DNA of 64,000 nt from NCBI GenBank assembly GCA_964599625.1, contig CAZRGC010000005.1, positions 10,462-74,461 of the forward strand, written 5' to 3'. Position 1 is the stretch's first letter. Each line of letters starts with the position of its first letter. A program made the translations under genes and the position numbers. Source of the DNA: an uncultured Gammaproteobacteria bacterium. Its GTDB lineage: Bacteria; Patescibacteriota; Microgenomatia; UBA8517. Of this stretch, positions 523-55,430 are shown piece by piece. Below the pieces are notes generated by a model. That model saw only the letters and a program-made list of their open reading frames with translations, had not been told where the DNA came from and ran no database searches.

Positions 523-774
523 TTACTTCTTTTCTTCTTCGGCTGATTCAATGTTTCTTGTGCGTGTTTGCGCAAAAAGCATTGTAAAGCCGTCGGGGGC
601 ATCCAAAGTTGTGGCAGGAAGAGTTCCGCAATACATCCAGTTTTGACAACCAGCGATGCGGATATAATCATCCCACTTCAAGGACCGTCCTTGAATTTCG
701 ACTTCATCAACTTTGGCAATCACGCCGTTAACAACTTCCACAAAGCGGTATTGAATGTATGTTTCCATTCTCAC
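523..774 (-). CDS. hypothetical small protein (83 aa), translationally coupled to upstream gene (ATGA overlap)
   Basis: ORF overlaps stop of 771..1736 by 4 nt; followed by terminator hairpin. Confidence 0.35.
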   Translation of the reverse strand: MRMETYIQYRFVEVVNGVIAKVDEVEIQGRSLKWDDYIRIAGCQNWMYCGTLPATTLDAPDGFTMLFAQTRTRNIESAEEEKK

Positions 775-1736
775 CTTGAGATATGACGACGCGGGTCGGC
801 CAATATCACCAAAATATCAGAACCTGGATCAATATCCTCTCCACAAGTGGAATTGGTATGGTCACGGTCATCAATCTCGAGTGCATAGATCTCGCCAGGC
901 CACCTTGTTCCCGTAACGCGTCGGTCCAAAACAAGCGGCGCAAACGGCGTCAAAAGCTCTGAGGCATCATCGCCAATCATCCGCGCACTTGCGAAGGTGT
1001 AAAGATATTGGGATGTCCCCGGGCGTCGGAAATAGACTTTGGAACCCGAAGAGAGTATGTGGTCATCACAGTCTGCAGTGCCACATGTTGGACAAATCGC
1101 TTCGTCGGTTGGTCTCAGACCAAAGGCCCTGCGGAACCTTGCTTCCCTGGTGATTTCCTTTGGCCAAAGTCCGTAAAACCCTTCGTGTCCAAATGGGCCC
1201 ATAAGCTTTTGCTGATACACCCTCACACTTGGCGTTTCGGAAAACGGCAAAAAGCTTCCGCCGGCAAAGTCGTCGGGATCAGATAAAACCACCACTGTGT
1301 CGCCATCTCTGATAGCATCATAGCGGCGCTTATTGGAGTCCACCATTCGTCCGTTGACGTAGGTCACCGCTTCGCGGTCGTCATCGTCGCCCAAGTTGCT
1401 GAGTACGTCATCAAGCTGACGGTTATAACTGCCGCTGGTGTAGGTATCCGCTAAAAGAATGTCACCCAGTCCCACAGGCAAGCTGTATTCGGTCCAGTCT
1501 TTGTTCTTGCGAACAATCAGGTTCTTGGCGTGTTCCACTTTGTGAACCAACTTAAGAGCCAAAATTTGCCGCCTGGTCATTTCACCTTTAAAGCGGAAAA
1601 GGTTTCCGGCGAGGGAATTTACTCGGCGCTTGAACAGGAATCCATTGATGTAATGTGCCGAAATCTGCACGTTTTGTTCAACAAACGCCGCAATTTCGGG
1701 ATAATCTCTTGCGAGATCGTTTCCTTTAGAAAACAT
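771..1736 (-). CDS. hypothetical protein with Cys cluster CPTCGTADCDDH (putative Zn-binding); GC-richer than surroundings
   Basis: 321 aa ORF, no recognisable family; antisense ORFs inside it rejected. Confidence 0.6.
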   Translation of the reverse strand: MFSKGNDLARDYPEIAAFVEQNVQISAHYINGFLFKRRVNSLAGNLFRFKGEMTRRQILALKLVHKVEHAKNLIVRKNKDWTEYSLPVGLGDILLADTYTSGSYNRQLDDVLSNLGDDDDREAVTYVNGRMVDSNKRRYDAIRDGDTVVVLSDPDDFAGGSFLPFSETPSVRVYQQKLMGPFGHEGFYGLWPKEITREARFRRAFGLRPTDEAICPTCGTADCDDHILSSGSKVYFRRPGTSQYLYTFASARMIGDDASELLTPFAPLVLDRRVTGTRWPGEIYALEIDDRDHTNSTCGEDIDPGSDILVILADPRRHISR

Positions 1737-5343: not shown

Positions 5344-6105
5344 CTACTTCTTACTTTCTGCGATCTTGGAAACTCTGCGGTTAAGGACGCTCTCGCGATA
5401 GAAGTCCTGGGCAAGCTTCTTTGCGCGTTCCAAGTCGAGCTTGGATGCACCATTTTCTGCCTTCCAGCGCTTTAAAAGCCCGTCTTCGTCGTCGCGGTTA
5501 AAATCCACCTGGCGGCTGAATTCGTTTAAGTATCCGAATATCGCCGGCAAGAAGATGCCCAGTACGCCGACAAGTGCTTCGGTAACCACCACTTCCTGCT
5601 TGAGTTTTTCGACGGCATTGACAGTCTTTTGGACCTCAAGCGCATCTTTCAAGCCTCCATTGCGGAGGGCCCAAATGGGAAGGTCTGATACCTTGACGCG
5701 AGCAGATGCGGCGATAGCGGCGAGCGGAATGGCGGCGGTCAATTGAAGAATTTTAAGGTTTGAGACCTCATCCTCAATCTCGCGGTACATGCTGGCAACA
5801 TGCAGGTTTTGCAGGTAGACCAAGAAATACTGAGCCATGCCAACCTTGGGAAGTTTGTATCCCAAAAGTCGCTCTGCCTTGTCCGCCCACTTCGCATCTT
5901 CCTCCAGAATGGTGCCCAGGTTCAACTCGCCTTTCACAGCCGACTTGATATCGAGCACCTCCAGGGCCTCTCCCAAAAGAGGATGAGCCTTATTGCGACG
6001 AACGAAGGCATCTGCCTCTTCCATCCCACGCTCACCGTCAATTGAGTAATCGAGTGCCTTACCCAAGCCCTTCAAGAGCTCTTCAAAGTTAATTTGCTTG
6101 GACAT
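5344..6105 (-). CDS. paralog family A member 3 (253 aa), unknown function
   Basis: motifs LLGYKLPKVGMAQYFLVYLQNLHVASM and AKKLAQDFYRESVLNRRVSKIAE. Confidence 0.65.
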   Translation of the reverse strand: MSKQINFEELLKGLGKALDYSIDGERGMEEADAFVRRNKAHPLLGEALEVLDIKSAVKGELNLGTILEEDAKWADKAERLLGYKLPKVGMAQYFLVYLQNLHVASMYREIEDEVSNLKILQLTAAIPLAAIAASARVKVSDLPIWALRNGGLKDALEVQKTVNAVEKLKQEVVVTEALVGVLGIFLPAIFGYLNEFSRQVDFNRDDEDGLLKRWKAENGASKLDLERAKKLAQDFYRESVLNRRVSKIAESKK

Positions 6106-6197
6106 TAGTCCTCCTAAACTAAAAGGTTCAAAACTAGCCTGGATATGATACTACATCAACAAAAATAAATAAACTATAAGATAATGATTAACAAAAA

Positions 6198-6593
6198 TTA
6201 CTTTGAAGCAATACTCTCCACGTCATCGGGAGAAAAAAAGGCATAAGTAGGCCCCCCTGCTCTATCAAACATCAAATAAGATTTTCCCTTGATAAACCCG
6301 ATCCTTGGCATAAGTTCGCGGGAACTCTCAAAAACAACATTTTTTCCTTCAAATATCCCGTGTTCATGGGCAAGTGACGATGTGATCGTGATTCCTTCTT
6401 CCCTGTACCTTTCAACTGCTGATGCTTTTATTTTTATAACAACCCCATCCTGTCTCACTCCCCACCCAAGCGGAGTTGCGATTTTTTTGGCAAATTCTTC
6501 TGAATTGGGATTTTTTTGCCAAAGTTTTAATCCGCTTTGTAAGTTCAGATTCAAAAGCCAAGTGTCAATATATTTTTCGTGAAGTCTTTCCAT
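6198..6593 (-). CDS. hypothetical protein (131 aa)
   Basis: ORF only. Confidence 0.5.
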   Translation of the reverse strand: MERLHEKYIDTWLLNLNLQSGLKLWQKNPNSEEFAKKIATPLGWGVRQDGVVIKIKASAVERYREEGITITSSLAHEHGIFEGKNVVFESSRELMPRIGFIKGKSYLMFDRAGGPTYAFFSPDDVESIASK

Positions 6594-6692
6594 TTTTAAC
6601 CAGAGTACAGTTTACAGATGCGGATTTGGGAAATCAAAGGCCAGTTTGGTATAATTCTGCCTTCGATCAGTACTTTCACAAAGGAGCATGTC

Positions 6693-7325
6693 ATGACCCC
6701 GTTAGAATATTTGGGTCTTTGGTTACTCTTAAACGTAATAATCTTGGTTCACGAGCTTGGCCACGCGGCAGCCGCGGGACTGGTTGGAAGTGATACAGAA
6801 AGCATCACGCTTGGATTTCCAACACTTTTTACCATCCCAATTTTTGGTATACCAACAAATGTTGGCCTCATTCCTCTTTTTGGTTTGGCTAAAATAAGCA
6901 ACTTTATGGACAGCGGACCAATCCGGAAGTTCATTATTGCTGTTGCGGGCCCCATTGCCAGTTTCGGACTTGCGCTACTGTGTTTCCAAATCGCAGGAGG
7001 AAATAGTCTTGTTCAGCAAATAGCTGCCAACAACTATTTCATACAAGAAACTTTGTCGTCTTTTTGGAACGACACACAAAATCCAATTCTCGAATTTACA
7101 AGCTTGTACGCGACCACAAAGGTTGCAACAGTTGCAGTGGCGGCTGGATGTATCAGCTTAATCTTGGCAATACTAAACATGCTCCCGGTCCCGATTCTCG
7201 ACGGCGGACGCGCCCTTTTTGCGCTTTTGGAAGCACTGTTTGGAGAGTGGGTAAGCAAAGTTCATACTGCGCTTATACCGATAAGCTTTTTTGCCCTGAT
7301 AATCTTCGAGATTATACGTTGGTGA
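6693..7325 (+). CDS. M50 family site-2 protease-like membrane metallopeptidase
   Basis: HELGH (HExxH) in a TM helix and LDGG motif (NMLPVPILDGGRALF); start set at ATG 6693 with SD AAGGAG 7 nt upstream (ORF track starts at 6618). Confidence 0.7.
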   Translation: MTPLEYLGLWLLLNVIILVHELGHAAAAGLVGSDTESITLGFPTLFTIPIFGIPTNVGLIPLFGLAKISNFMDSGPIRKFIIAVAGPIASFGLALLCFQIAGGNSLVQQIAANNYFIQETLSSFWNDTQNPILEFTSLYATTKVATVAVAAGCISLILAILNMLPVPILDGGRALFALLEALFGEWVSKVHTALIPISFFALIIFEIIRW

Positions 7326-7368
7326 TCGCAGTGATGCCATGGAAGAAATTTCGTGGCATCACATTTTT

Positions 7369-7842
7369 TCAAAACCTTACTGGTGGCTCTTTTCTTCGTT
7401 TTTCTTCGACAAATCTGTCAAAAAACATTTTTGAAAGGTTTGAATATTTCATGTTAAACCCGAACATTCGGGAAATTTCTACTTCACCCAAAGTTATTTC
7501 CTTTTGATACTTTTCCCTCTCAAACGGCCTGAGCGCGGCCAAAATAGCTTTTGGGTCTGTGTCCACCCTAGCTCTTTTAATAACCACTTCCACAATACTC
7601 CCTGCCTTAACTAGTCCTTTTGGAACATGGAAAATAACAGGACTGTCGTCGTTGTCCAACATCTTGCCAAAATCCAAAATCACCATGTCGAATCCGGGAA
7701 AATACTTTCTGTCGGAGAACGAGTCTAAAACCCTTATTGTCCCCGCGGTTTCAGGACGTCTAAACCACAAAGCTTCAGTAAAGTTGGCAAATGAGGCCTC
7801 CAAAAATGCCTCTGCTTTATCCAGGTTTCGTTCGATGCTCAT
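7369..7842 (-). CDS. hypothetical protein (157 aa)
   Basis: ORF, last gene of a 4-gene minus-strand operon led by the P-loop kinase. Confidence 0.5.
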   Translation of the reverse strand: MSIERNLDKAEAFLEASFANFTEALWFRRPETAGTIRVLDSFSDRKYFPGFDMVILDFGKMLDNDDSPVIFHVPKGLVKAGSIVEVVIKRARVDTDPKAILAALRPFEREKYQKEITLGEVEISRMFGFNMKYSNLSKMFFDRFVEEKRRKEPPVRF

Positions 7843-7854
7843 TTGCGAACTATA

Positions 7855-8289
7855 CTATCTGACTTCGAAGTTTTCAATTTCATGAGGCCTGAAAATTCCA
7901 ATTGTGCGCCAAACTTCACCATCTCTCTCTTCAAAAACGAAGTTGTATTTGTCTGTCAGCCTCATCTCACCATCGTGCCATTTTCTTATCCCAATCTTCA
8001 ACTTACCCACTTTTCCTTTTTTTGGTGCAAGGTTAAAAACAAAATAATCCCTTTCAACTTTTGCATACCGTCTTACGTCGTTAGCACCAACACTATTACG
8101 CGATTCCGAAAGACTCATTATTTCTCTCTTTATTCTAAAAGTCAGCCCTCTTCTTGTTAAATAGGCATCGTGCAAAACACTTGCCATTTGGTTGGCAGCA
8201 AAGTCATCATCGGGATTTGTTTGCCACGCAAAAAGTGCCTTTCGAAAATCGGCGTCTAGTCTATCAAATTGTTTTGGTCTTTCTTTCAC
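7855..8289 (-). CDS. hypothetical protein (144 aa)
   Basis: ORF; 4-nt overlap with upstream gene. Confidence 0.5.
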   Translation of the reverse strand: MKERPKQFDRLDADFRKALFAWQTNPDDDFAANQMASVLHDAYLTRRGLTFRIKREIMSLSESRNSVGANDVRRYAKVERDYFVFNLAPKKGKVGKLKIGIRKWHDGEMRLTDKYNFVFEERDGEVWRTIGIFRPHEIENFEVR

Positions 8290-8528
8290 TTGAGATTGTG
8301 ATCATCCAGTTCTGAGTGAGCTTTGATTAGTAGCTTCAGATCGTCTTCCGAAATAAGTTTCGATAAGTTTCTTTTGATTCCTTCCGTGATTTTTTGATCG
8401 TGTGGAGGGTTATGAAGAAAAATGCTGTGATAAATTGCAGCTGCCGCTTTCCTGCCAAGATTATTTATGCTTTGTTCCCGTCCAAAAAGCTCCGTAACAA
8501 ATCTCTTTTCAGAAATTCTTTCGGTCAT
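8286..8528 (-). CDS. hypothetical protein (80 aa)
   Basis: ORF. Confidence 0.4.
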   Translation of the reverse strand: MTERISEKRFVTELFGREQSINNLGRKAAAAIYHSIFLHNPPHDQKITEGIKRNLSKLISEDDLKLLIKAHSELDDHNLK

Positions 8529-8568
8529 TCAAAAAATATTAGACCCAAATGATGTTCAAATCAAATTT

Positions 8569-9219
8569 TTAATGTCTTTCGTGCCCGTGATGGTGGTGAT
8601 GGTGGTGTTTGTGTTCACTTTTAGAAGCTTCCGCCTCTTTGGAAACTCTCATTACACCAATACCCAACTCTAAAAAGGCCAAGTCTGCGTTTTGAATAAG
8701 TTCTTCTTTAGATCCTTCATTCCAAATTGTCCTATCAGCCAGCTCAAGACATTTGTCCACCTGCATTGCAGTGGAACCTTCTTCTCCTCTCTCTCTTTCA
8801 AGCATCTTTATAAATTCTTCAAATGTTTCGGGGTCTCCCGGGCGCTTCCTTTCTTTCATTCTTTTAAAAAGCGTTTCAGGACTTGCCGTGATTCCAATTA
8901 CTTTTGCATCAAAAAAGTCTTTAAGAAAAGTTATTTCATCGGGGTGTCTTATGCTGTCAATCACGACTAAATCGGCGTGTTTGAACTCATTTTTGGCAAC
9001 AGTCATTCTTGCCAAAATGTCAGCACCTTCTTTTGCTCTCATATCATCACCAAGGTTCTGAAGCACTTCGCGTTTATGTGACCATCCATATTTTGTAGCA
9101 ACTTCACGCAAGATGTCCGAAAGCGAAAAATAAGTAAATCCTTGGCCAACCAAATACTTGCTTATTTCCCCTTTTCCGCCGGACCCTGGTCCTGTAAAAC
9201 CAATTATCACTCTTTCCAT
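8569..9219 (-). CDS. P-loop NTPase, adenylate-kinase-like nucleotide kinase with native His-rich C-terminus
   Basis: Walker A GFTGPGSGGKGE resembles AK GxPGxGKGT; C-terminal KSEHKHHHHHHHGHERH. Confidence 0.55.
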   Translation of the reverse strand: MERVIIGFTGPGSGGKGEISKYLVGQGFTYFSLSDILREVATKYGWSHKREVLQNLGDDMRAKEGADILARMTVAKNEFKHADLVVIDSIRHPDEITFLKDFFDAKVIGITASPETLFKRMKERKRPGDPETFEEFIKMLERERGEEGSTAMQVDKCLELADRTIWNEGSKEELIQNADLAFLELGIGVMRVSKEAEASKSEHKHHHHHHHGHERH

Positions 9220-9641: not shown

Positions 9642-10310
9642 CTATTCTACCATCATGCGGAATCTTTTCAAATCCACTGTTATGGCTTTAGGCAATGAAC
9701 CCGGATCTGTAAGAAAAGTTTTGACAACTTCGCCAACAACACCGGCACAGTTCATGACTGTGTAAAAAATAGCCGCTTGGGTGCAAACGGCATTGTGGAC
9801 TTTCACCTTGCGGAAAAGTTTTTCCTCGTATGCCTCCACCCGGATTTTGTCGCCCATTGGAATGGGGTAAATCTGATAAAGCTCTCCCGCCATCCTGGTT
9901 TCCACATACAAAGGAATGTGTTTGGAGCTCTTTCTTACCCCGCGCCAAATGTCTTGTCTGCCTTCGATCGAATGAACCGCACTCACAACAATTCCGTTAA
10001 GAGCTGTTGGTGCATGGTAATCTTTGGCAAATGGCGTTGCCTGGACAGTGGTGAATTCCATTAGATTTGTCGCCAAAGACTCTGCCTTTCCCTTACCAAG
10101 TTGAGATAACTTGAAAAACTGGTTGGGCAAATTATGGCTTTCGATCTTGTCGCTGTCCCAAATGGAAAGAATGTCCACACCCATCTTGGCAAGTGTGAAT
10201 CCGATCGGAGACCCCAGGCCGCCTGCACCAATCAAAACAAACGGATATTTGTTCAGGATTTGGGGAGGCAAAAGGCCCATCTGTCTCGTAAAGTTCAAGC
10301 GTTTTCCCAT
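9642..10310 (-). CDS. minimal ThiF/MoeB/E1-like adenylyltransferase (222 aa)
   Basis: Rossmann motif VLIGAGGLGSPIGFTLAKMGV and WDSDKIESHNLPNQFF (DxDxVExSNLxRQ-like); SD AGGAGG; candidate Cys in CTQAAIFYTVMNC. Confidence 0.8.
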   Translation of the reverse strand: MGKRLNFTRQMGLLPPQILNKYPFVLIGAGGLGSPIGFTLAKMGVDILSIWDSDKIESHNLPNQFFKLSQLGKGKAESLATNLMEFTTVQATPFAKDYHAPTALNGIVVSAVHSIEGRQDIWRGVRKSSKHIPLYVETRMAGELYQIYPIPMGDKIRVEAYEEKLFRKVKVHNAVCTQAAIFYTVMNCAGVVGEVVKTFLTDPGSLPKAITVDLKRFRMMVE

Positions 10311-10849
10311 TCAACCTCCTGTTTCGAAGATGGTTTGTAAACGACCTTCTCAGCAACTTCCTTTTCCAACTCTGCGCGCGTAAAGATTACTTCGTCTTTG
10401 CCCGTGTAGGTGTAAATCGTGAAGTTAAAAACGGAAAAGGGTTCGGGTTTTTGGATGTCGTACCGGGTCGCGAAATGTCCCTCTTTATTCCCCACAATTG
10501 AAAACAGTGGATATTTTTGGGACATCCGTTTGATTGTCTCGTCATCCTTGTCGCGCGACCAACCAACTTGGAAAACTCCATGGCTATGCCACCAAAGGCG
10601 GAAAGCCGAAAGAGGAATGCCTTTGCCAACCATCTCACGCACAAAGGCGGAGTGGCCCAATGGGTCAAAAGTGGTCAGAATATCTGTTGCGGTCTGTTTA
10701 ATAAGATAAAGATTGCGCACGTAGTGCACACCTTCAACCTCCTCAATATGACCCAGCCCACTAATCTCGCCTTTGGCAATGTCGATGTAGGTAAACCACT
10801 TTTCAAAAACAGTCTCCGGCATATAGACTACCGGTAAATAATCTTCCAT
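10295..10849 (-). CDS. JAB/MPN (JAMM) metallopeptidase
   Basis: Glu in GLGHIEE plus WWHSHGVFQVGWSRDKD (HxH-x7-S-x-D); 16-nt overlap with E1 gene; SD AAGGAG. Confidence 0.7.
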   Translation of the reverse strand: MEDYLPVVYMPETVFEKWFTYIDIAKGEISGLGHIEEVEGVHYVRNLYLIKQTATDILTTFDPLGHSAFVREMVGKGIPLSAFRLWWHSHGVFQVGWSRDKDDETIKRMSQKYPLFSIVGNKEGHFATRYDIQKPEPFSVFNFTIYTYTGKDEVIFTRAELEKEVAEKVVYKPSSKQEVEWENA

Positions 10850-10858
10850 ACCATCTCC

Positions 10859-11761
10859 TTATGATTCTCTTGCGAAAATCATCATCGACTCTGCGGCAAG
10901 GGCCAGTTCCTTCTTTTTCAAAAACTGGCTGACACCGTGGTGAATATTCCCCAAACAAAGTCCACCGCAGGAATATACATGTTCATGCTTTCCTTGATAT
11001 GCAGGGGATAAATAAAAAACCTGCACAAACGCGCTTTCATCCCAGTCGTTGGGGCGCATCACCACCAGTATCTCTCCAATGTTGACTTTGTTTTGGTCAC
11101 CACCAGATTCTCTGTACTGTGTTTTGCCCAAGCTAAACCTGATTTCATCTTCAGTTACAATCAGTTCGCCCTTGGATATCTTGTAGATATAGTCGTATTG
11201 CTTCTTGATCTGGGCATTGCTGAAATGGGTGCGTCTGAAAAAGGTCTGGAAGTTCTTGAACGATGCGCTTCTGAGATCTTGACGCTTTTTTCCTTCGATC
11301 ATTAACCTCTCTTCAAAGCCAGGAATTTTTTCATAGGCATCAAGAATGCGTTTAAGGACAAGGAGGGCTTTTTGCTTCTCATCGTCCTCGTAGACTGGAA
11401 GGTCAAAAGGTATGTAGATTGTGTTTCCCACCACCTCGGCCACCACGTTTTCGTCATTGTCCGTGATCGGATAACCTATGAGAGATGTTTGGACTCCTTC
11501 CCTTTGTGAATAGAGAAGTTCTACTCCGAACGCTTCGACAATTGAATTTTCGGAAGCGTTAGAAAATGGCCCAACCGAAGCGGAACGCCGGAAATAGATA
11601 TCCAGCCTGTTTTTGCGCATGTTTGGAATGCCAAAATCGGGTCGATCGAAGTCGTCATCCCCTATATGCACTGCATGAATATTGATCTTCCATCGTATTG
11701 CGTAAACCTGAAGAATCAACTTAATTTCTTCTTCAAGTCCTTCTACTTCAACTGTGTTCAT
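10859..11761 (-). CDS. protein with C-terminal UBC/E2-like active-site signature (300 aa from ATG 11761)
   Basis: HEHVYSCGGLCLGNIHHG matches E2 HPN-x7-C spacing and G-x-[IL]-C-L-x-[IN]-[IL]; N-terminal 240 aa unassigned; ORF-track start 11818 is TTG. Confidence 0.45.
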   Translation of the reverse strand: MNTVEVEGLEEEIKLILQVYAIRWKINIHAVHIGDDDFDRPDFGIPNMRKNRLDIYFRRSASVGPFSNASENSIVEAFGVELLYSQREGVQTSLIGYPITDNDENVVAEVVGNTIYIPFDLPVYEDDEKQKALLVLKRILDAYEKIPGFEERLMIEGKKRQDLRSASFKNFQTFFRRTHFSNAQIKKQYDYIYKISKGELIVTEDEIRFSLGKTQYRESGGDQNKVNIGEILVVMRPNDWDESAFVQVFYLSPAYQGKHEHVYSCGGLCLGNIHHGVSQFLKKKELALAAESMMIFARES

Positions 11762-11876
11762 ACTATCCTTTCCACGAAGTAGTCGTGATTTCGTTAAAAT
11801 TTCAAAGTTCAAAACCAAAAAACCAACTTGGGGATTTTATCATATCTCATAGTAAGCGGCAACTAAGCAAGGTGTG

Positions 11877-13079
11877 TTATTTGTCCTGCTGAAGTTGTTT
11901 GAGGCCCATCACTCTCAAGTAATCACGATCAAAAGCTGCCACTAATGACTCTTTGGAAGAAAGCGGTCCGGGTTTTAGAAACCTAGTGCCTGCGCCTTTC
12001 TGCACTCTTGCGCAAATATCCAAAAAGTCCTGCTTGTTGGTTAGGTCCCAAAAATCCACAGCATCCTTGGGGTTGTAGCCAGGAGACTTGGCAGCGTCTT
12101 TCCTAAAAAGCCATCTACTTATTATTTTTGTTTTGTTCTCAGATATGGGAACTATCAAGTCATAGTTGACATAATCCGGATGCACTCCCAAAAGAAGCAT
12201 TCCCGGAGAAAATGAATATGCGTAAAGCCGCTTAACCTCGTCCTCCTTAAAATCCCCCAAAAGGGGTGCGCAAAACTCGCCGGAGATTGTAAGGTCATCA
12301 TATCCTTCTTTAACAAGCATATACCCACCCAAAACCGGCCCTTCTGTAACATCGTTGAACCAGGATTTGTAACCGGAAACCCTTATCAACTGAGGATGCT
12401 TTGTAGGACAATGATCACACTCTTCATAGTTTTCAAAAATTATTTTCCAATTTGCAGGGATATTGTTATAAACAATTTCTGCTCCCAACTCTAGCTCCCC
12501 TAATCCGTATTTATCCAAATCTGTCGGCAGATAAGGAAATGCCTCTTCAAAATTCATTGGTCTATTCGGGTCAACATTAATAAATATAAAACCGTTCCAC
12601 ACATGAACTGCAGACTCCTGAATGCAAAGCTCTTCCCTTTCAAACCCTTCGGTTTCTTCCAATGCCATGGCATTAATTACTTTTCCATTTTTATCAAAGG
12701 TGATGCTGTGATAATCGCACTGAATAACCTTGTTCAACTTCTTTTCTTCTTTTTCTTCTGTTATTTCGACGTCCCTATGCCCGTGATTTTCATCGTGTGG
12801 ATCTTCCATCAAACGGATATTTCGGTGTGGGCAAACATTATGCAGTGCCTTAACACCTCCGTCTTCACCTCTAAAAACTATTATGCTTTCGCCGTCAATT
12901 TCATACAAAAAATAATTATCGGGATTGGGTATGTCGCTTACATGCCCAACACAAATGGGGTTTTCATAAATGAACTTTTCTTTTTCTTTTTGGAAAATCA
13001 CCTCGGAGGTGTAAAACTCACCACTCAATACTCGCGAACCCTTCACAAACGTCTCCTGTGTTCTTTTTGCTTCCGTCAT
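11877..13079 (-). CDS. Rieske [2Fe-2S] domain non-heme iron oxygenase-like protein
   Basis: Rieske boxes VCPHR and QCDYH (unusually long His-rich spacer DPHDENHGH); candidate mononuclear Fe site EECDHCPTKH. Confidence 0.55.
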   Translation of the reverse strand: MTEAKRTQETFVKGSRVLSGEFYTSEVIFQKEKEKFIYENPICVGHVSDIPNPDNYFLYEIDGESIIVFRGEDGGVKALHNVCPHRNIRLMEDPHDENHGHRDVEITEEKEEKKLNKVIQCDYHSITFDKNGKVINAMALEETEGFEREELCIQESAVHVWNGFIFINVDPNRPMNFEEAFPYLPTDLDKYGLGELELGAEIVYNNIPANWKIIFENYEECDHCPTKHPQLIRVSGYKSWFNDVTEGPVLGGYMLVKEGYDDLTISGEFCAPLLGDFKEDEVKRLYAYSFSPGMLLLGVHPDYVNYDLIVPISENKTKIISRWLFRKDAAKSPGYNPKDAVDFWDLTNKQDFLDICARVQKGAGTRFLKPGPLSSKESLVAAFDRDYLRVMGLKQLQQDK

Positions 13080-13988: not shown

Positions 13989-14178
13989 ACAAACCAGTAT
14001 ATATGAATAAAAATGTTTATTTGAAAGTCACCGTCTGAAATTTGTTTTTGACAAAGCGAGTGAATACATCTCCAAAGTTGCAATTGTTTGACGAGGGTTT
14101 ACCCCGAAGAAGTTTTGCAAACAAAACATGAACGAGCGAAGGAACTAACAAATTTCAGTGAGGTGGGCATTTCTTGGT

Positions 14179-14204
14179 TCATTCTTTGGGCAAACAAAGA
14201 ATGA
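14179..14204. promoter_or_regulatory. perfect 10-bp inverted repeat TCATTCTTTG-n6-CAAAGAATGA in divergent promoter region
   Basis: lies between divergent operons 13988(-) and 14229(+); candidate operator. Confidence 0.3.
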
Positions 14205-14228
14205 ACAATATTGGTATATAATTACAAT

Positions 14229-15041
14229 ATGAGACGAAATTTCGGCAAAAAAAGTATTAATAGTAGGCAACGCCGAACCATTCACACTGAGCGTAGCAGA
14301 AGTACTTCCTGGGAAAATTCTTCAAGGTGGTATAACAAGATCACGGGAGAAAAAGGACATTATTACCACGAACATGTGGTTATTCCCGGTGTACTAAAAC
14401 TTTTTGACCTCAAACCGGGAGATAAACTTTTGGACTTGGCTTGTGGCAACGGTATTTTGGGAAGAAGCATCCCCAAAGGAATCGAATATCTTGGTGTAGA
14501 TTTGTCGGAGAGCTTGATATCGGTAGCCAAAAAAATGGATACAAACATTAATCACAAATACACTTCGGGTGACGTTACCCATCCATTAAACGTAGGTGCA
14601 GATTTCAATAAAGCCGCAATTATACTTTCTTTGCAAAATATCAAAAAACCGCATCTTGCTATTGATAACGCGTCCAAACACCTTGCTTCCGGAGGAGTTT
14701 TTGTAATCGTACTCAACCACCCTGCATTTCGCATTCCAAGACAGTCTTCCTGGGGAATCGAACAAGGGAGGCAAATTCAGTACAGAAGAGTTGATAAATA
14801 CATGTCCCGAATGGTGATACCGATAAACACAAACCCCAGTGACAAAAACTCCCCCGTCACTTGGAGTTATCATTTCCCCATAAGTGAATATTCCAAGATG
14901 CTCAAAAACTGCGGGTTTGTAATTTCGGAAATAGAAGAATGGACAAGCGACAAAGAAAGTGAAGGAAAAGTGGCAAAGATGGAAAATCGGGGCAGGAGTG
15001 AAATCCCTCTATTTTTAGCAATTGTTGCCACAAAGATTTAA
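14229..15041 (+). CDS. class I SAM-dependent methyltransferase
   Basis: motif I LLDLACGNGILG, motif post-I LGVDLSE; start at MRRNFGKK (ATG 14229). Confidence 0.75.
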   Translation: MRRNFGKKSINSRQRRTIHTERSRSTSWENSSRWYNKITGEKGHYYHEHVVIPGVLKLFDLKPGDKLLDLACGNGILGRSIPKGIEYLGVDLSESLISVAKKMDTNINHKYTSGDVTHPLNVGADFNKAAIILSLQNIKKPHLAIDNASKHLASGGVFVIVLNHPAFRIPRQSSWGIEQGRQIQYRRVDKYMSRMVIPINTNPSDKNSPVTWSYHFPISEYSKMLKNCGFVISEIEEWTSDKESEGKVAKMENRGRSEIPLFLAIVATKI

Positions 15042-15085
15042 CTTCAGTTGGTTTCAAACTTGGGTAAGTTGTTCGAAGAAATAGT

Positions 15086-15120
15086 GCCCGGGGCTGATTT
15101 TCATCAGGATTACCCCGGGC
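15086..15120. terminator. bidirectional terminator hairpin GCCCGGGG...CCCCGGGC
   Basis: 8-bp GC stem between convergent genes 14229..15041(+) and 15154..15459(-). Confidence 0.5.
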
Positions 15121-15153
15121 AAGAACAAATTTCAGAAAAGCGGTTTCGGCAGA

Positions 15154-15459
15154 CTAGGCTTCGCGAGCGAGCGGGTAGCGCAACTTCCGCGCACCGACTT
15201 CGACAGGCAGGTCGGAAACAAGGCTACCGATGACGTGCATTTTTTCGATAGTACCGTCACACACCCAGGTCACATGCAAGATCTCGCCGCCGGGCAAGAC
15301 CAGATTGTCAGCTTCCTTGAGCTGTTCGAGGTCAACGACGTAATCGTCGCCACCGCAATAGCCCCAGGTGAACTTCAGATCGTCGCCGACGATCTCGTGG
15401 GCGCGCAAAGCGTTTTCGAGCGTGTCTTCGTCAAACGGGGTCAACACACGAGTGTTCAT
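15154..15459 (-). CDS. hypothetical protein (101 aa), GC-rich
   Basis: ORF; composition differs from neighbours. Confidence 0.4.
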   Translation of the reverse strand: MNTRVLTPFDEDTLENALRAHEIVGDDLKFTWGYCGGDDYVVDLEQLKEADNLVLPGGEILHVTWVCDGTIEKMHVIGSLVSDLPVEVGARKLRYPLAREA

Positions 15460-15741
15460 ACTGTCTCCTTGAATGAAAATGTTCGCTTTTATTTAAAAGC
15501 AGGCCTGTAGTACAATTACTATCTTATAATGTCAACTTGGGTGTATATCTGAAGTTAATTCCGATTATCCCAAAACCCTATCTAACGATAGTGTCTTGGC
15601 CTAAAGCTTCATATTTGGTAGAATACATGCTTGAGAGTGATCTTTCAGAAATTGTTTTTGGCCCTATTGCGTAAACAGGGGCCGAAAAAATAGATTTTTT
15701 GGACCTACGTCGCAGACGAGGGCCAGAAAGTCTGACTTTCT

Positions 15742-15814
15742 GGCCCTATCGTCTAGTGGCCTAGGACACGGGGTTTTCAGCCCTGTAACCTGGGTTCGAA
15801 TCCCAGTGGGGTCA
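15742..15814 (+). tRNA. tRNA-Glu (anticodon TTC)
   Basis: acceptor GGCCCTA/TGGGGTC (2 GU), D-arm GTCT-AGTGGCCTA-GGAC, anticodon loop TTTTCAG, T-arm CTGGG-TTCGAAT-CCCAG; no encoded CCA. Confidence 0.85.
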
Positions 15815-15831
15815 CTCAAAAAATCATTGGA

Positions 15832-15895
15832 GGGCCCATAACAACCTTGCTTCGCAAGAACGTTGTGGTGCCCGCTTGATGACTCGCGGGCCCAT
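15832..15895 (+). other. structured spacer bounded by GGGCCCAT repeats (third copy starts tRNA-Lys); internal hairpin ACAACCTTGC-ttc-GCAAGaacGTTGT
   Basis: GGGCCCATA at 15832, 15888 and 15928; possible tRNA remnant or processed spacer RNA. Confidence 0.3.
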
Positions 15896-15927
15896 AAGCA
15901 AAGCTTGTGTGCCACAGACAGTTACAT

Positions 15928-15999
15928 GGGCCCATAGCTCAATGGTAGAGCAACACCCTTTTAAGGTGATGGTTACAGGTTCGAGTCCTGTTGGGCTCA
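15928..15999 (+). tRNA. tRNA-Lys (anticodon TTT)
   Basis: acceptor GGGCCCA/TGGGCTC, D-arm GCTC-AATGGTA-GAGC, anticodon loop CTTTTAA, T-arm ACAGG-TTCGAGT-CCTGT. Confidence 0.85.
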
Positions 16000-16063
16000 C
16001 TCGCGTACGCTCCCTCTCCCACCACTCTTTGATAGTGCTTTTAAGGATAAATGTTTTGCGCAT

Positions 16064-16080
16064 GAGTCCTGTTGAACTCA
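16064..16080 (+). repeat. degenerate direct repeat of tRNA-Lys 3' end (GAGTCCTGTTGaaCTCA vs GAGTCCTGTTGggCTCA)
   Basis: 15/17 identity, about 65 nt downstream of the tRNA. Confidence 0.45.
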
Positions 16081-16150
16081 CTAGCTCTGGTTCCCATTCA
16101 ACATTTTTACCTCTATTTACTTGATAATTTATTTGTGAAAAAATCCAACT

Positions 16151-17584
16151 ATGCTTGACCGAGCAACAGATCAGGAGCACCTAATCGCAAACGAAAATAT
16201 AAAAGTTCTCGAGAGCCAAATAAGGTCAGGTGCAACCGTCGAAAACACAAACAGAAAATCTCTGCAGGATCTCGCCACAAAAAGACTTACCAATTGGAAC
16301 ACCGCAGATACCCCGGAAGAAGATAAATCTAACACCGACTATCAATATTCAGAGTTGGTAAAAATATTCGGAGACGAAAGATTGAGAGAAGTTGTAAGCG
16401 GAGCGATTGCAGACCTGGTTGCAATTCCTGAGTACCACGTTTTAACGGGTGAATACTGGGAAAGTTCCGAGTATTCACCACAAAACCTTGGCAAAAAATG
16501 GAGACCGATCGAAAAAACTACACCAGAAGAAAATTCCAAAATGGCTGGAGATTTTGCATCAAACTTTTTACCAAGTAAAAATAGTTTCAGTAACTTTTCG
16601 TACTTAGATAAAAAATATAAGTCTCTGGGTCCCGAGAACGAATGGATGGAAAAAACATATAAATACACAAAGAACATTCTTTCCGCAATGTACAATATTT
16701 GCGAGGTAGTTAAACAAGGCGACGCCAAAACAGTTGCTGCAAAAATAGCTCTGGAAAAATTACCACCAGGTCTTGTTTCAAAATCATTGAGCAGACTTTT
16801 CTTTGAGACAGACGGGATAATGAACAGAAGATACAAGTTCGCAATAGGTGATGACGAAAATGACTGGTCGGGTGACGCATCTGAACGGGGCAAGCAATAC
16901 TTCGAAGAATGGCTACTCCCCGTTTTACCCGGACTTAAAAAAATTTATGAGGAGGTAAAACAAAGTGAAGATGCCGACAAAATGATTTGTATTTTTTTAG
17001 ACAGAGATGCCAGACCGCTTATGCATGCCTTCAAATCGTATATTGGCAACGTTGATTGTGTTCCCCTTATGGCAAACAGCATGATGCTGGAAAGAAGTCG
17101 CGAACTATATAGGAATGCAAGCCTCGAAATACAAGATCAAGATATATCAAACCCGGACCTTTGGACACAAAAAATAAACGAGAGGCTAGACAAAGCAGAA
17201 TCAGATGAAATGCTAAACATGAGAGAGATTTATGGAAAACTCCTTTTAAGAAATCGACTAAAGGGTAAAACTAGAGCCCTTGTTGTTGACATTGGCCACT
17301 ACGGAACTGGAGCAAGCGCGGTTTCTTATATTCTAAGTAAATCATTTCCCGAAACAACCTTTACGCCTGTGTTAGCTTATGGGGTAGATTCAGGAGAGCA
17401 TATCAGAACTGTGGCTCCAAATTCGTCCTCCTGGGGTGCAGAACTTTCACTTCCAAAGGCTGTGCACGGATTATTCATCGAAAATGGAAAGGCTAAATAC
17501 TTAAGAAACCGTGGGAAAACAGATTTCGAAAGAGACTTTTACAAAAGTATTATTTTGGAAGTCCGAAAACTAAGAACAAAGTAG
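16151..17584 (+). CDS. large hypothetical protein (477 aa)
   Basis: long clean ORF immediately downstream of the tRNA-Lys att-like repeat; no motif recognised. Confidence 0.6.
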   Translation: MLDRATDQEHLIANENIKVLESQIRSGATVENTNRKSLQDLATKRLTNWNTADTPEEDKSNTDYQYSELVKIFGDERLREVVSGAIADLVAIPEYHVLTGEYWESSEYSPQNLGKKWRPIEKTTPEENSKMAGDFASNFLPSKNSFSNFSYLDKKYKSLGPENEWMEKTYKYTKNILSAMYNICEVVKQGDAKTVAAKIALEKLPPGLVSKSLSRLFFETDGIMNRRYKFAIGDDENDWSGDASERGKQYFEEWLLPVLPGLKKIYEEVKQSEDADKMICIFLDRDARPLMHAFKSYIGNVDCVPLMANSMMLERSRELYRNASLEIQDQDISNPDLWTQKINERLDKAESDEMLNMREIYGKLLLRNRLKGKTRALVVDIGHYGTGASAVSYILSKSFPETTFTPVLAYGVDSGEHIRTVAPNSSSWGAELSLPKAVHGLFIENGKAKYLRNRGKTDFERDFYKSIILEVRKLRTK

Positions 17585-17590
17585 AAAAAC

Positions 17591-17761
17591 TCACTGCATG
17601 AAGTAGTAAGCCAAAAGAACAAGAAGTGCAATTCCTACAACAATTACTGCCGTCTTGTCAGTTTTGGTAGCCTTTTTACTGGCAACAGCAGCACTCGACC
17701 TCACAACCTTTCTGGATTTAGCCGTCTTCCTGGGAGCAGATTTGGATTTCTTTTTAGCCAT
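17591..17761 (-). CDS. small basic protein with C-terminal TM helix (56 aa), not in ORF track
   Basis: MAKKKSKSAPRKTAKSRKVVRSSAAVASKKATKTDKTAVIVVGIALLVLLAYYFMQ; convergent with 16151..17584. Confidence 0.35.
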   Translation of the reverse strand: MAKKKSKSAPRKTAKSRKVVRSSAAVASKKATKTDKTAVIVVGIALLVLLAYYFMQ

Positions 17762-17829
17762 ATAAATAATCTATATATTAAACTTAGAATATCCTTAAAA
17801 CCTATGCAATAGGCAATTTTTGAACAGAT

Positions 17830-17860
17830 TTGCAAATATCGTTTGCACAAGGTGTATAAT
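17830..17860 (+). promoter_or_regulatory. sigma70-like promoter TTGCAA-n19-TGTATAAT giving a leaderless transcript
   Basis: ATG at 17867 lies 6 nt after the -10 element. Confidence 0.45.
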
Positions 17861-17866
17861 ACCCAC

Positions 17867-18073
17867 ATGGCAAAAGACACAGAACCCAAAGTAGGAGTGA
17901 TAACCCGCATATATGGCGAGGAAAATAGAGATCATTTGGTTGGCCGCGGCATTGGCGCGAACGGAGATGGTTTTTCTAACAGAGATTTGGAACTAGATGA
18001 AGAAATGCAAGTAATTGTTACCTTGGACGACGACTCGATCGCACGCCCCGCACCACCCGAGGAAAAAAAGTAA
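17867..18073 (+). CDS. small acidic protein (68 aa), probably leaderless
   Basis: MAKDTEPKVGVITRIYGEEN...; start chosen from promoter position (ORF track begins 17843). Confidence 0.4.
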   Translation: MAKDTEPKVGVITRIYGEENRDHLVGRGIGANGDGFSNRDLELDEEMQVIVTLDDDSIARPAPPEEKK

Positions 18074-18081
18074 AACCGGGT

Positions 18082-18306
18082 TTATTTAACTCTCCCCCCG
18101 CCAGACTCACCTTCCTGGCCCTCACGATGTTTTCTCAATATCTCAGCAACTCTGTCGGTCAAGTTTGATTCCCGTTCTCTTTGTTTTCTCCTTTTGATCA
18201 GAAGATTATTTGTCAAAGCATCCACCACTTCCCCGGTAGAGCCCTTTGTGGCTCCGCTTTCCGTCTTTTCCACCTCTGTTAGCTCTTTTTGTTTAATCGG
18301 TGACAT
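18082..18306 (-). CDS. small basic protein (74 aa)
   Basis: ORF convergent with 17867..18073. Confidence 0.35.
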   Translation of the reverse strand: MSPIKQKELTEVEKTESGATKGSTGEVVDALTNNLLIKRRKQRERESNLTDRVAEILRKHREGQEGESGGGRVK

Positions 18307-18341
18307 GGCAAAATTCTAACACAAACTACAATCTTAAGTGA

Positions 18342-19076
18342 TTATTTTGCAGGGGGTTCATCCAAAAAAACCTGAGGAAGCTGGTACAAGTCAAACGCTG
18401 TTATTCCCTGCATTTCTGCATCTTTCATCGCAATTTTCATAATCAACCTGTCAAACAATTGGTCCTTGGGAAACACTTCAGGCACAGGTCTTGATGAATC
18501 ACCTTCACCACCACTTTGAAATTTATTAAAAGTGTATATTCGGTCTTCGTTTTTGGACGGGGTAATCACCATTTTACCGATCTTCACTTTCTCCTGAAAT
18601 TGTCTATATGTTGGGTCCACAGTCCACCACTCGGATTCACTTTTGGCTTTGAATCTCAATATATAGTGAGGCATGGATTTGCTTGCAGTTTTCTCGTCCT
18701 CTCCAAGATCCATGTTGTTTGTGGAAACATGCACAACTTCAATATCAACATTATCTCCGTACTTAACTATTAGTGCCTGTTCAAGCGAAGCAACGGCAAT
18801 CGTACACATCCCGCTTCCTGTAAAATTTCCTTCAGACTTACCTACACTCATTTTGAATAATTTAGCCTCACTTTCCCCAACTACAGTCTTAGTTCTATCT
18901 TCTAGCGAAACTATTTGGGTATACCCAGAGTCCATTTTGTCAGCAATTTCCTGAAGTTTGTCCGAAAAAGGCTTTTCGTAGGACCTTATCCAATGAGCAA
19001 TCTGAGTATTTGAGGGGTTTTCGGGAGCTACCATTGCCTCGATCGGGGTATCCAATACTGGTTCTGCCATTATCAA
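18342..19076 (-). CDS. hypothetical protein (244 aa)
   Basis: ORF; GSGMCTIAVASLEQA segment of unknown significance. Confidence 0.55.
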   Translation of the reverse strand: MIMAEPVLDTPIEAMVAPENPSNTQIAHWIRSYEKPFSDKLQEIADKMDSGYTQIVSLEDRTKTVVGESEAKLFKMSVGKSEGNFTGSGMCTIAVASLEQALIVKYGDNVDIEVVHVSTNNMDLGEDEKTASKSMPHYILRFKAKSESEWWTVDPTYRQFQEKVKIGKMVITPSKNEDRIYTFNKFQSGGEGDSSRPVPEVFPKDQLFDRLIMKIAMKDAEMQGITAFDLYQLPQVFLDEPPAK

Positions 19077-19257
19077 ATTCTACACCATACTCCGTGACCA
19101 TCCCAGATAGCCGTTCTTCATGATAAAATAGCCTTGTCTTGTGGTTCTTTTGTGTGTTTCACCAAAATTCTGCAAGAATTTTGAGAGGAGAAACGATGAA
19201 GCGGTAGGGTTTAAGCGTAAGCGGTAAACCCGTCAGCGGAATCCGTTTCGACGACAT

Positions 19258-19328
19258 TGGGGGATCGTCTAATGGTAGGACAGCAGCCTTTGGAGCTGTG
19301 AATTGGGGTTCGAATCCCTGTCCCCCAG
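19258..19328 (+). tRNA. tRNA-Gln (anticodon TTG)
   Basis: acceptor TGGGGGA/TCCCCCA (U1-A72 typical of bacterial tRNA-Gln), D-arm GTCT-AATGGTA-GGAC, anticodon loop CTTTGGA, T-arm TGGGG-TTCGAAT-CCCTG. Confidence 0.85.
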
Positions 19329-19393
19329 CTCGCAGACTCGCTGTTGTTCAGTGATTCGATAGTGCGAAAAATGGAATCTAATACTTTGCACGG

Positions 19394-19410
19394 CGAATCC
19401 CTGTCCCCCA
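19394..19410 (+). repeat. 17-nt exact direct repeat of tRNA-Gln 3' end (CGAATCCCTGTCCCCCA)
   Basis: identical to 19311..19327, 66 nt downstream of tRNA; att-like scar. Confidence 0.5.
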
Positions 19411-19438
19411 ACACTTCGGCAAGCTCAGTGCAAACAAT

Positions 19439-55279: not shown

Positions 55280-55430
55280 AAATGATTATACAATACAAAC
55301 AAATCCGCAAATACGGAGAGAAATACTAAAATACACTTCACAGCAAAGCTGGAAAAAAGCTATTAAGCCTTTTCATACTGAAAGTGGAAGAAAGCCTCAG
55401 GCTTTCTTCAAGATACAGGCGGAAGAAGGA

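Follow-up and report, generated by a model that had tools for sequence, protein, structure and literature searches.

Copies and complements of tRNA ends in the flanks of a tRNA-Glu, tRNA-Lys and tRNA-Gln locus of a Microgenomatia genome

Partial copies of tRNA genes are commonly taken as integration scars that delimit islands. Displaced fragments of tRNA genes (tDNAs) and partial, non-canonical tRNA genes have been described at the integration sites of islands and prophages, as set out in two reports (PMC9897764; PMC4383910). The locus considered here comprises the genes for tRNA-Glu, tRNA-Lys and tRNA-Gln, together with the short repeats in their leaders, spacer and trailers, in a 64,000-nucleotide (nt) stretch of contig CAZRGC010000005.1 (assembly GCA_964599625.1; the whole stretch is called the window below). 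Reading its partial tRNA copies as island ends would result in wrong boundaries. The locus resembles island-end tDNA fragments as well as the tyrT repeats of Escherichia coli, and fails one defining feature of each.

As in Islander-type fragments, a direct repeat of a tRNA 3' end, starting at the T-loop, lies downstream of an intact tRNA; its presence varies among close relatives, the neighbouring genes vary, and mobile genes occur at the same tRNAs (related loci L066, L007 and L002, introduced below). Unlike in Islander-type islands, the repeats hold just 64-65 nt and neither an integrase nor cargo, what they enclose belongs to a conserved family found at two different tRNAs, and 5' fragments with complementary anti-fragments are present too. 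Of the features of an integrated element, a 3' direct repeat and an empty site in relatives are found, and an integrase or cargo between the copies is not.

At E. coli tyrT, Egan and Landy reportedly described in 1978 a 178-bp unit occurring about three times, each copy with the last 19 nt of tRNA-Tyr. The K-12 sequence has this repeat at tyrT/tyrV as a 178-nt unit in three copies at 95% identity. As in tyrT/tyrV-rttR-tpr, the last 17-19 nt of a tRNA gene are found again downstream with a trailer, and the unit here starts inside the tRNA 3' end, at the T-loop; the E. coli trailer is transcribed and gives a small RNA, annotated rttR. Whereas the whole 178-nt unit is tandem in E. coli, the unit here measures 81-83 nt and its trailer, the non-tRNA part, is not repeated after the copy. 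Moreover, different tRNAs are followed by related trailers, and each trailer carries the end of the tRNA that it follows.

In bacterial tRNA operons, leaders, trailers and 3' external transcribed spacer RNAs form part of the same transcript as the tRNA. Like such structured flanks, the sequences described here are more conserved than neutral sequence and predicted to be structured. They also share ~40-nt palindromic, tandemly duplicated, intergenic units with repetitive extragenic palindromes and bacterial interspersed mosaic elements (REP/BIME) or miniature inverted-repeat transposable elements (MITE). Unlike those, the units stand only beside their cognate tRNAs in the 64-kb window and the fetched loci, and no REP-associated tyrosine transposase (RAYT) or other transposase was seen. 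To our knowledge, among described families there is none in which a leader hairpin sequesters the first 6 nt of a tRNA, and none whose trailer finishes with a copy of the 3' strand of its own tRNA.

There is no attL/attR pair delimiting an integrated element here. We prefer, with about as much belief as doubt, to read the tRNA flanks as short modules that copy or complement the adjacent tRNA ends, that have spread between tRNA cassettes, and of which the old ones act in cis on the precursor.

Conserved modules at tRNA-Glu and tRNA-Gln

ARAGORN and Rfam agree that tRNA-Glu(UUC) (15742..15814), tRNA-Lys(UUU) (15928..15999) and tRNA-Gln(UUG) (19258..19328) are genuine, which confirms the first two as called in a first-pass annotation of this DNA. 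Their scores against Rfam RF00005 are 55.8, 72.3 and 58.7 bits, respectively, against a gathering score of 29; the ARAGORN calls themselves run to 15815, 16000 and 19329. All three lie on the + strand, as do the other flank features of the window given below, and none encodes its CCA; the tRNA-Lys of the related locus L070 does. tRNA-Gln starts 3.3 kb beyond tRNA-Lys. Nothing else in Rfam 15 reaches its gathering score, the sub-threshold matches being generic hairpins or tRNA look-alikes. The DNA past the window edges holds no additional tRNAs, and an exact 41-mer of tRNA-Lys has no match in GTDB genomes.

Comparison loci were traced via flanking proteins, apart from one pair found by a scan with a 49-mer of tRNA-Glu, and seven related loci reveal three kinds of flank module. 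L002-L006 are conspecific strains, 99% identical to the window to the right of tRNA-Lys. L061 and L007 are two contigs of a metagenome-assembled genome (MAG) of a sister species (GCA_964600575.1), with 87% amino-acid identity in a methyltransferase and 84% in an arginase. In L058 the arginase is 91% identical; the methyltransferase is 66-69% identical in L066, 68% in L070 (GCA_034680565.1) and 57% in L064 and L065, two Joint Genome Institute (JGI) contigs with an identical tRNA-Glu. The tRNA-Glu sequence is the same in the window, L002, L061, L064 and L066. Four-fold degenerate sites are only 48% identical between the window and L061/L007, so unconstrained sequence at this distance should be near random.

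Ahead of tRNA-Glu lies a promoter-like site, TTGGCC-17-TAGAAT with an upstream TG (15596..15624), whose -10 hexamer and 3' sequence are kept in relatives; upstream of this conserved -10 part, the aligned sequence differs in each lineage. The -10 hexamer and the leader start GCTTGAGAGTGATC are common to all lineages with an aligned leader, and the longer leader start AATACATGCTTGAGAGTGATC... (15616..15639) is common to the window, L002, L061, L063 and L066. The following 98 nt (15640..15737), present in the window and L002, are missing in L061, where GAGAGTGATC-T runs straight into tRNA-Glu. Two degenerate units of 41 nt make up this stretch, one at 15655-15695 and one at 15696-15736, each consisting of a T-run plus GGCCCTA, which mimics the tRNA-Glu 5' end, then ~12 nt, then AGGGCC plus an A-run, the complement. 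The tRNA-Glu 5' end with its T-run, TTTTTGGCCCTAT, is accordingly present three times in the leader at 41-nt spacing. L066 and L064 have one homologous unit each, and L070, in which tRNA-Glu starts 1 nt after tRNA-Lys, has none.

The 11-bp hairpin that the first-pass annotation placed over the 5' end of tRNA-Glu, GGGCCAGAAAG-tctga-CTTTCTGGCCC (15720-15746), is present and forms the core of a perfect 14+14 inverted repeat, AGGGCCAGAAAGTC-T-GACTTTCTGGCCCT (15719..15747), whose 3' arm contains tRNA nt 1-6. In it, the final complement arm of the ~40-nt leader unit is paired with the leader end and these 6 nt. Perfect hairpins of at least 11 bp occur at 3 loci in the window, against a mean of 0.37 in dinucleotide shuffles; the other two are TTCATTCTTTGG-gcaaac-CCAAAGAATGAA (14177-14206), which comes shortly before the methyltransferase gene starts, and GAAGAAAGCCT-c-AGGCTTTCTTC (55387-55409). 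Corresponding hairpins cover the tRNA-Glu start in L066 (AGGGCCAAAAA-CTGCG-TTTTTGGCCCT) and L064 (AGAGCCAAAATC-GGA-GATTTTGGCCCT). When the three sequences are aligned, 97% of stem cells are paired, against at most 63% in slid controls, and two stem pairs are changed on both sides (G:C to A:U, A:U to U:A).

RNAfold favours a fold in which the tRNA start is sequestered: -83.7 kcal/mol against -76.1 kcal/mol with the native acceptor stem enforced in the window (a gap of 7.6 kcal/mol), and -48.5 against -41.8 kcal/mol in L064 (6.7 kcal/mol). In both, the minimum-free-energy structure pairs tRNA-Glu nt 1-5 with the leader. In the sequestered fold, the upstream decoy copy is predicted to pair with the 3' acceptor strand. 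The two folds tie in L066, and L061 folds natively. The leader alone folds far better than shuffles (z = -5.1). The Glu hairpin is an old structured leader module, duplicated in the window species and lost in L061. A terminator reading of this hairpin and of the trailers was rejected, since a consensus terminator scan finds no + strand terminator in 15000-18900 and the tRNA body lies directly 3' of the hairpin.

tRNA-Gln is preceded by a leader (19130..19257) whose type is met repeatedly in the clade and which is well conserved in L061, as judged by eye from the alignment. Leaders of this type stand before tRNA-Gln in a number of lineages, and before tRNA-Lys in strains of the L002 type (L061 13960-14143; L002 3480-3603; L064 2960-3064; L070 8039-8150), and share a CAAAATTC-TGCAA-GAATTTTG hairpin, AAGCG repeats and a GGGTTTA...TAAACCC hairpin. 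L061 has a compensatory C:G to U:A change in the first of these hairpins, and the leader of the window folds at z = -2.4 against shuffles.

The trailer module behind tRNA-Gln (19329..19412) is a 65-nt trailer with a conserved inner stem, followed by CGAATCCCTGTCCCCCAAC, a copy of the gene's own T-loop-to-3' end. The sequence CGAATCCCTGTCCCCCA at 19311-19327 is present again at 19394-19410 (17/17), 66 nt downstream of the gene, which gives the module a period of 83 nt (81 at tRNA-Lys). Trailer and fragment are common to the window, L061/L007 and L070, with 49-55 identities in 65 trailer positions and the 17-nt fragment unchanged. This identity (75-85%) is far above neutral divergence, with its 48% at four-fold sites. 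L065 has a divergent tRNA-Gln with its own 3'-end copy, TAGTCCCGCAGC, 42 nt downstream. The L058 contig, which ends inside the tRNA, has the tRNA-Gln T-arm 8 nt from the arginase with no module between, and a tRNA-Gln trailer pattern has no match in JGI metagenomes. Contigs L007, L058, L061 and L063, from four independent assemblies, end inside tRNA-Gln, in its trailer or at the tRNA-Glu leader, and these breaks may reflect population heterogeneity there. A general trait of the candidate phyla radiation (CPR) was rejected as the source of 3' copies: in a small sample, 0 of 5 other tRNAs in the fetched CPR loci have one.

Copies at tRNA-Lys and in the Glu-Lys spacer

Behind tRNA-Lys, a 64-nt trailer, CTCGC...GATAGTGC...TTTGCGC (16000..16063), is paralogous to the tRNA-Gln trailer rather than foreign filler, and leads into a copy of the tRNA-Lys 3' end from T-loop to discriminator, GAGTCCTGTTGAACTCA (16064..16080). 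The copy had been noted earlier as a 17-nt duplication, and it does match 15983-15999 in 15 of its 17 nt, with a gap of 64 nt behind the gene; two matches were seen in none of 100 shuffles. At both mismatches the tRNA has G and the copy A. The anticodon-loop 9-mer of tRNA-Lys, CTTTTAAGG, is also present again at 16038. Further copies of the 17-mer were found neither in the window at up to 3 mismatches nor on viral contigs.

All conspecific strains have the tRNA-Lys trailer and copy, and L061, L064, L066 and L070 do not, so the unit is an 81-nt insertion specific to the window species. Of the suggested att-type duplication, what stands is this species-specific insertion of a tRNA 3' fragment; as repeats bounding 16100..19200 the copies fail, for they enclose only 64 nt.

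The Lys and Gln trailers align end to end, with 39-42 identities in 64 positions (z 3.2-4.7). No such alignment is obtained between the Lys trailer and the 5' 55 nt of any tRNA (z <= 1.3), and the trailers give no match to the Rfam tRNA model even at E <= 10; their reading as decayed whole tRNA copies was rejected because of the missing 5' alignment. By their sequences, the trailers are a family of their own, each member ending in its own tRNA's 3' end. The L061 flank after tRNA-Lys and the window flank after the copy compare at z = 1.1. A degenerate trailer motif has 3 matches in the viral scans, none close to a tRNA. A diversity-generating retroelement as the origin of the G/A differences was dropped, as the neighbourhood lacks a reverse transcriptase and a variable repeat is an implausible role for a tRNA.

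The spacer between tRNA-Glu and tRNA-Lys (15815..15927) is strain-specific and structured (z = -3.6). Conspecific strains are 99-100% identical over tRNA-Glu with its leader and again from tRNA-Lys on, with an unrelated 193-nt spacer in between. Where Glu precedes Lys, spacers measure 4 nt in L066, 51 in L061, 78 in L064, 112 in the window and 193 in L002, L003 and L006; in the reversed order of L070, the spacer is 1 nt. The window spacer has no significant similarity to that of L061 (z = -0.4). The 193-nt spacer of L002 is homologous to the leaders that precede tRNA-Gln, including that of the window. By eye, it has a terminator-hairpin-plus-leader layout like the spacers before tRNA-Gln in L064 and L070, and resembles the whole Lys-Gln spacer of L064.

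The 64-nt element bounded by GGGCCCATA repeats that the first-pass annotation saw in this spacer is present, and so is the same start at tRNA-Lys. GGGCCCATA occurs at 15832, 15888, 15928 (the tRNA-Lys start) and 1195, that is, four times against 0.36 expected, a number that no shuffle reached. The spacer copies are 5'-end fragments of tRNA-Lys. The first (15832..15840) is predicted to form a hairpin in which GGGCCCATAAC pairs with the anti-copy GTTGTGGTGCCC (15862-15873), again a 5'-end copy with its complement. The second (15888..15896) is followed by AAGCAAAGCTTGTGTGCCA, which, on visual judgement only, is like the leader after a 20-nt tRNA-Lys fragment in L064. The element (15832-15895) folds at -27.5 kcal/mol, against -18.0 kcal/mol in shuffles (z = -3.4). 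The suggestion of a tRNA-derived remnant or structured spacer RNA holds in that the spacer is structured and carries tRNA-Lys 5' fragments, and fails in that it bears no likeness to a tRNA: ARAGORN makes no call there, and with the Rfam tRNA model there is no match even at E <= 10. The match outside the locus, GGGCCCATAAGC at 1195-1206 within a 321-aa open reading frame (ORF; 771..1736), equals the second spacer copy through 15888-15899, and as a 12-mer is unlikely to be a chance match.

Similar 5' fragments occur in relatives. A 20-nt tRNA-Lys fragment lies upstream of tRNA-Lys in the L064 spacer, and a 20-nt tRNA-Gln fragment in the tRNA-Gln leader of L061; both end ...AATGGTA in the D-loop.

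How the copies may have arisen

As the aligned loci read, short insertions and deletions of modules always leave the tRNA intact. Our preferred reading would account for them with one process acting on three kinds of module. The leader module is the ~40-nt unit, a mimic of the tRNA-Glu 5' end with its complement, duplicated in the window, where the last complement arm forms the hairpin with the real tRNA start. In the spacer, tRNA-Lys 5' fragments, one with a complement, lie in a sequence that is exchanged wholesale between strains. The trailer module is the 81-83-nt unit, a 64-65-nt trailer plus a copy of the cognate T-loop-to-discriminator segment, which is old at tRNA-Gln and inserted at tRNA-Lys only in the window species. 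Duplicative recombination or template switching may have carried the modules from one tRNA cassette to another, with joints at shared short sequences: GTTCGAnTCC in the T-loop, AATGGTA in the D-loop, and CTCG after each tRNA. Joints in the D- and T-loops would explain why fragments start or end there and match the local tRNA.

The CCA-less tRNAs are presumably transcribed together with their flanks, and old modules would then probably persist through cis action on the precursor, the Glu hairpin and the Gln trailer either competing for acceptor-stem strands or giving structure to leader and trailer. The Glu leader unit and the Gln trailer are old and conserved, and look selectively conserved; the tRNA-Lys copy and the spacer repeats are probably young, neutral by-products of the same process.

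Several points weigh against this reading. The genome of the window contributes only three tRNAs. The covariation of the Glu hairpin rests on three distinct sequences and is equalled in 54 of 500 shuffles, and fold-back replication would also yield complementary arms without selection. Shuffles of the Lys trailer fold about as well as the trailer itself (z = +0.3), and covariation in the trailers is slight according to RNAalifold. The Lys trailer is also ~38% diverged from the Gln trailers, yet just 2 of the 17 nt in its fragment depart from tRNA-Lys, a discrepancy by which the present Gln trailer is not the donor; no other donor was seen. Copy-choice or ectopic recombination is read from breakpoint positions, with no donor-recipient pair caught. 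Finally, mobile DNA at these tRNAs (L066, L007, L002) leaves integrase events as a possible source of the 3' fragments.

That last point leads to the idea of eroded integration scars, a serious candidate that we nevertheless consider improbable. Elements with a tyrosine or serine recombinase would have entered tRNA-Lys and tRNA-Gln between T-loop and 3' end, regenerated the tRNA, displaced its former 3' end and eroded by deletion to a 64-nt remnant beside the tRNA, with the 5' fragments and the hairpin as unrelated local duplications. The fragments span T-loop to discriminator, which Williams reportedly listed in 2002 as a known sublocation for integrase crossover. Islander islands, too, end in a regenerated target and a displaced fragment, according to the abstract of the report (PMC4383910), and the Lys copy is missing in four relatives.

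Mobile DNA at tRNA-Gln adds to the case for scars. In L066, a 520-aa large serine recombinase (Resolvase, Recombinase and Zn_ribbon_recom domains; 14261-15834) lies on the opposite strand, ends inside the 3' part of tRNA-Gln and is followed by small helix-turn-helix-type ORFs, and the region looks like an integrated element beginning at tRNA-Gln. L007 has, between the tRNA-Gln trailer and the arginase, a RibD_C (dihydrofolate-reductase-like) gene (7530-8300, - strand) flanked by a 19-nt full and an 11-nt partial copy of the tRNA-Gln 3' end. tRNA-Gln adjoins the arginase directly in L058, an arrangement that arginase synteny does not show outside the nearest relatives. The flank after the distal fragments resembles that after the intact L066 tRNA-Gln (window ACTTCGGCA, P ~0.009; L007, P ~0.02). 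In IMG/VR, the tRNA-Gln 17-mer is found in phages, only in tRNA-Gln genes or attP-type 3' halves and never with the trailer; one T-loop-type viral-scan match (L038) lies beside prophage-like ORFs, dUTPase-like and short integrase-like by eye, with no link to the clade.

Yet the repeats hold just 64-65 nt, and the supposed Gln remnant is 75-85% identical in three lineages whose neutral sites are at 48%. Two independent erosions would have to halt at equal length, precisely at the core boundary. No integrase or recombinase domain is found in window ORFs of at least 250 aa (shorter ones were not all scanned), neighbouring ORFs have no phage or defence signature, and the tRNA-Lys 17-mer is on no viral contig. 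The scars also leave the 5' fragments and anti-fragments unexplained.

The short-module reading can itself be taken further, to a family of cis-acting pre-tRNA modules in a clade of Patescibacteria, and in this form it is doubtful. The hairpin would mask the 5' acceptor strand with the help of an upstream decoy, the trailer would mimic the 3' acceptor/T-stem strand, and both would be selected to gate the folding of CCA-less tRNAs or their processing by RNase P or RNase Z, propagating at D- and T-loops and adopting the ends of the host tRNA.

Quite unlikely is a purely local origin, in which slippage or unequal crossing-over across tRNA boundaries made tandem duplications that decayed neutrally, with no function and no transfer between tRNA loci. 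The E. coli K-12 unit, which overlaps the last 19 nt of tyrV, is a precedent, and TTTTTGGCCCTAT recurs at exact 41-nt spacing in the Glu leader. In L061, the 36 nt from the tRNA-Gln 5' fragment to the gene are similar to the adjoining upstream part of the leader (z = 3.2, P ~0.01). Wherever a fragment and its tRNA differ, the tRNA has G and the fragment A, which is what decay of a copy would produce in an AT-rich genome. What follows the copy, however, does not repeat what follows the tRNA at Lys (z = -0.4, hence no tandem repeat of the trailer) and is borderline at Gln (z = 1.9); the Lys trailer is homologous instead to the trailers of another tRNA; and the Gln module and Glu hairpin are kept across lineages with saturated neutral sites, unlike neutral decay.

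Protein-binding sites at the DNA level, such as operators of a tRNA-operon repressor (TTTTTGGCCCT-N12-AGGGCCAAAAA between promoter and tRNA), are very improbable: 11-bp inverted repeats with a ~12-nt spacer do lie 25-100 nt downstream of the promoter-like site and are kept in three lineages, but the 5' end of the tRNA itself would have to serve as one half-site, the neighbouring genes include no evident regulator, and L061 and L070 lack the element.

Variable gene slots and what the locus means

The 477-aa ORF that had been reported downstream of the copy is present (16151-17584, + strand) and lies outside the repeat pair, in a variable slot 3' of tRNA-Lys. Among 5.8 billion proteins, its product has no homologue beyond its own species, and it matches nothing in Pfam, PHROG or PADLOC. 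L061 has a glyoxalase-family gene in its place. The ORF is lineage-specific cargo in a variable slot, not enclosed by the repeat pair, which holds 64 nt and no gene.

The three tRNAs are contiguous in L064 and L070, and 2-3 kb of genes separate tRNA-Lys from tRNA-Gln in the window, L061 and L066. The suggested insertion of 16100..19200 is borne out to the extent that the Lys-Gln interval is inserted relative to L064 and L070. Against L061 it does not hold: between 16.1 and 19.2 kb, only the 477-aa ORF has no counterpart there, and the 56-, 76-, 74- and 244-aa genes are shared. The tRNA order is Lys-Glu-Gln in L070 (7967-8388) and Glu-Lys-Gln elsewhere (e.g. L064 2649-3137).

The upstream side varies as well, with the homology breakpoint falling in the promoter. 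The window has a 101-aa ORF upstream of tRNA-Glu; L002-type strains have a 528-aa PcfJ-like and a 125-aa ORF instead, and L061 and L066 have 113- and 122-aa ORFs. To the left of the cluster (window 14040-15615 against L002 1-3210), nucleotide identity is ~87%, with 92% amino-acid identity in the methyltransferase. Since the same strains are 99% identical to the right of tRNA-Lys, the tRNA cluster is a recombination breakpoint.

The flanking genes are typical of Patescibacteria/CPR and include type IV pilus genes, an ATP-dependent ligase, the arginase and a spermidine-synthase-like protein; the closest named relatives of the arginase are in Levyibacteriota and Saccharimonadales MAGs. Farther upstream on the - strand lie a 216-aa P-loop kinase-like ORF with a histidine-rich tail, HKHHHHHHHGHERH (8569-9219), and a conserved cluster beside the tRNA locus (9642-13079). 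The L061 counterpart of this cluster (5354-9069) contains ThiS-like, ThiF-like, 183-aa and 300-aa ORFs and a Rieske ring-hydroxylating oxygenase, and may be a ubiquitin-like modification system.

In these genomes the tRNA genes are fixed anchors, around which leaders, spacers, gene order and neighbours are exchanged, and this is so even between strains with 99% identity downstream. The repeat behind tRNA-Lys is part of a small module that a second tRNA also has, conserved there in three lineages near neutral saturation. The parts worth following are the conserved Glu leader hairpin and the tRNA-Gln trailer module. The host organisms are poorly known, with minimal genomes and probably few copies of each tRNA gene. 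Should the precursor indeed be what the hairpin and trailer mimic work on, the two would represent a previously undescribed control of tRNA maturation.

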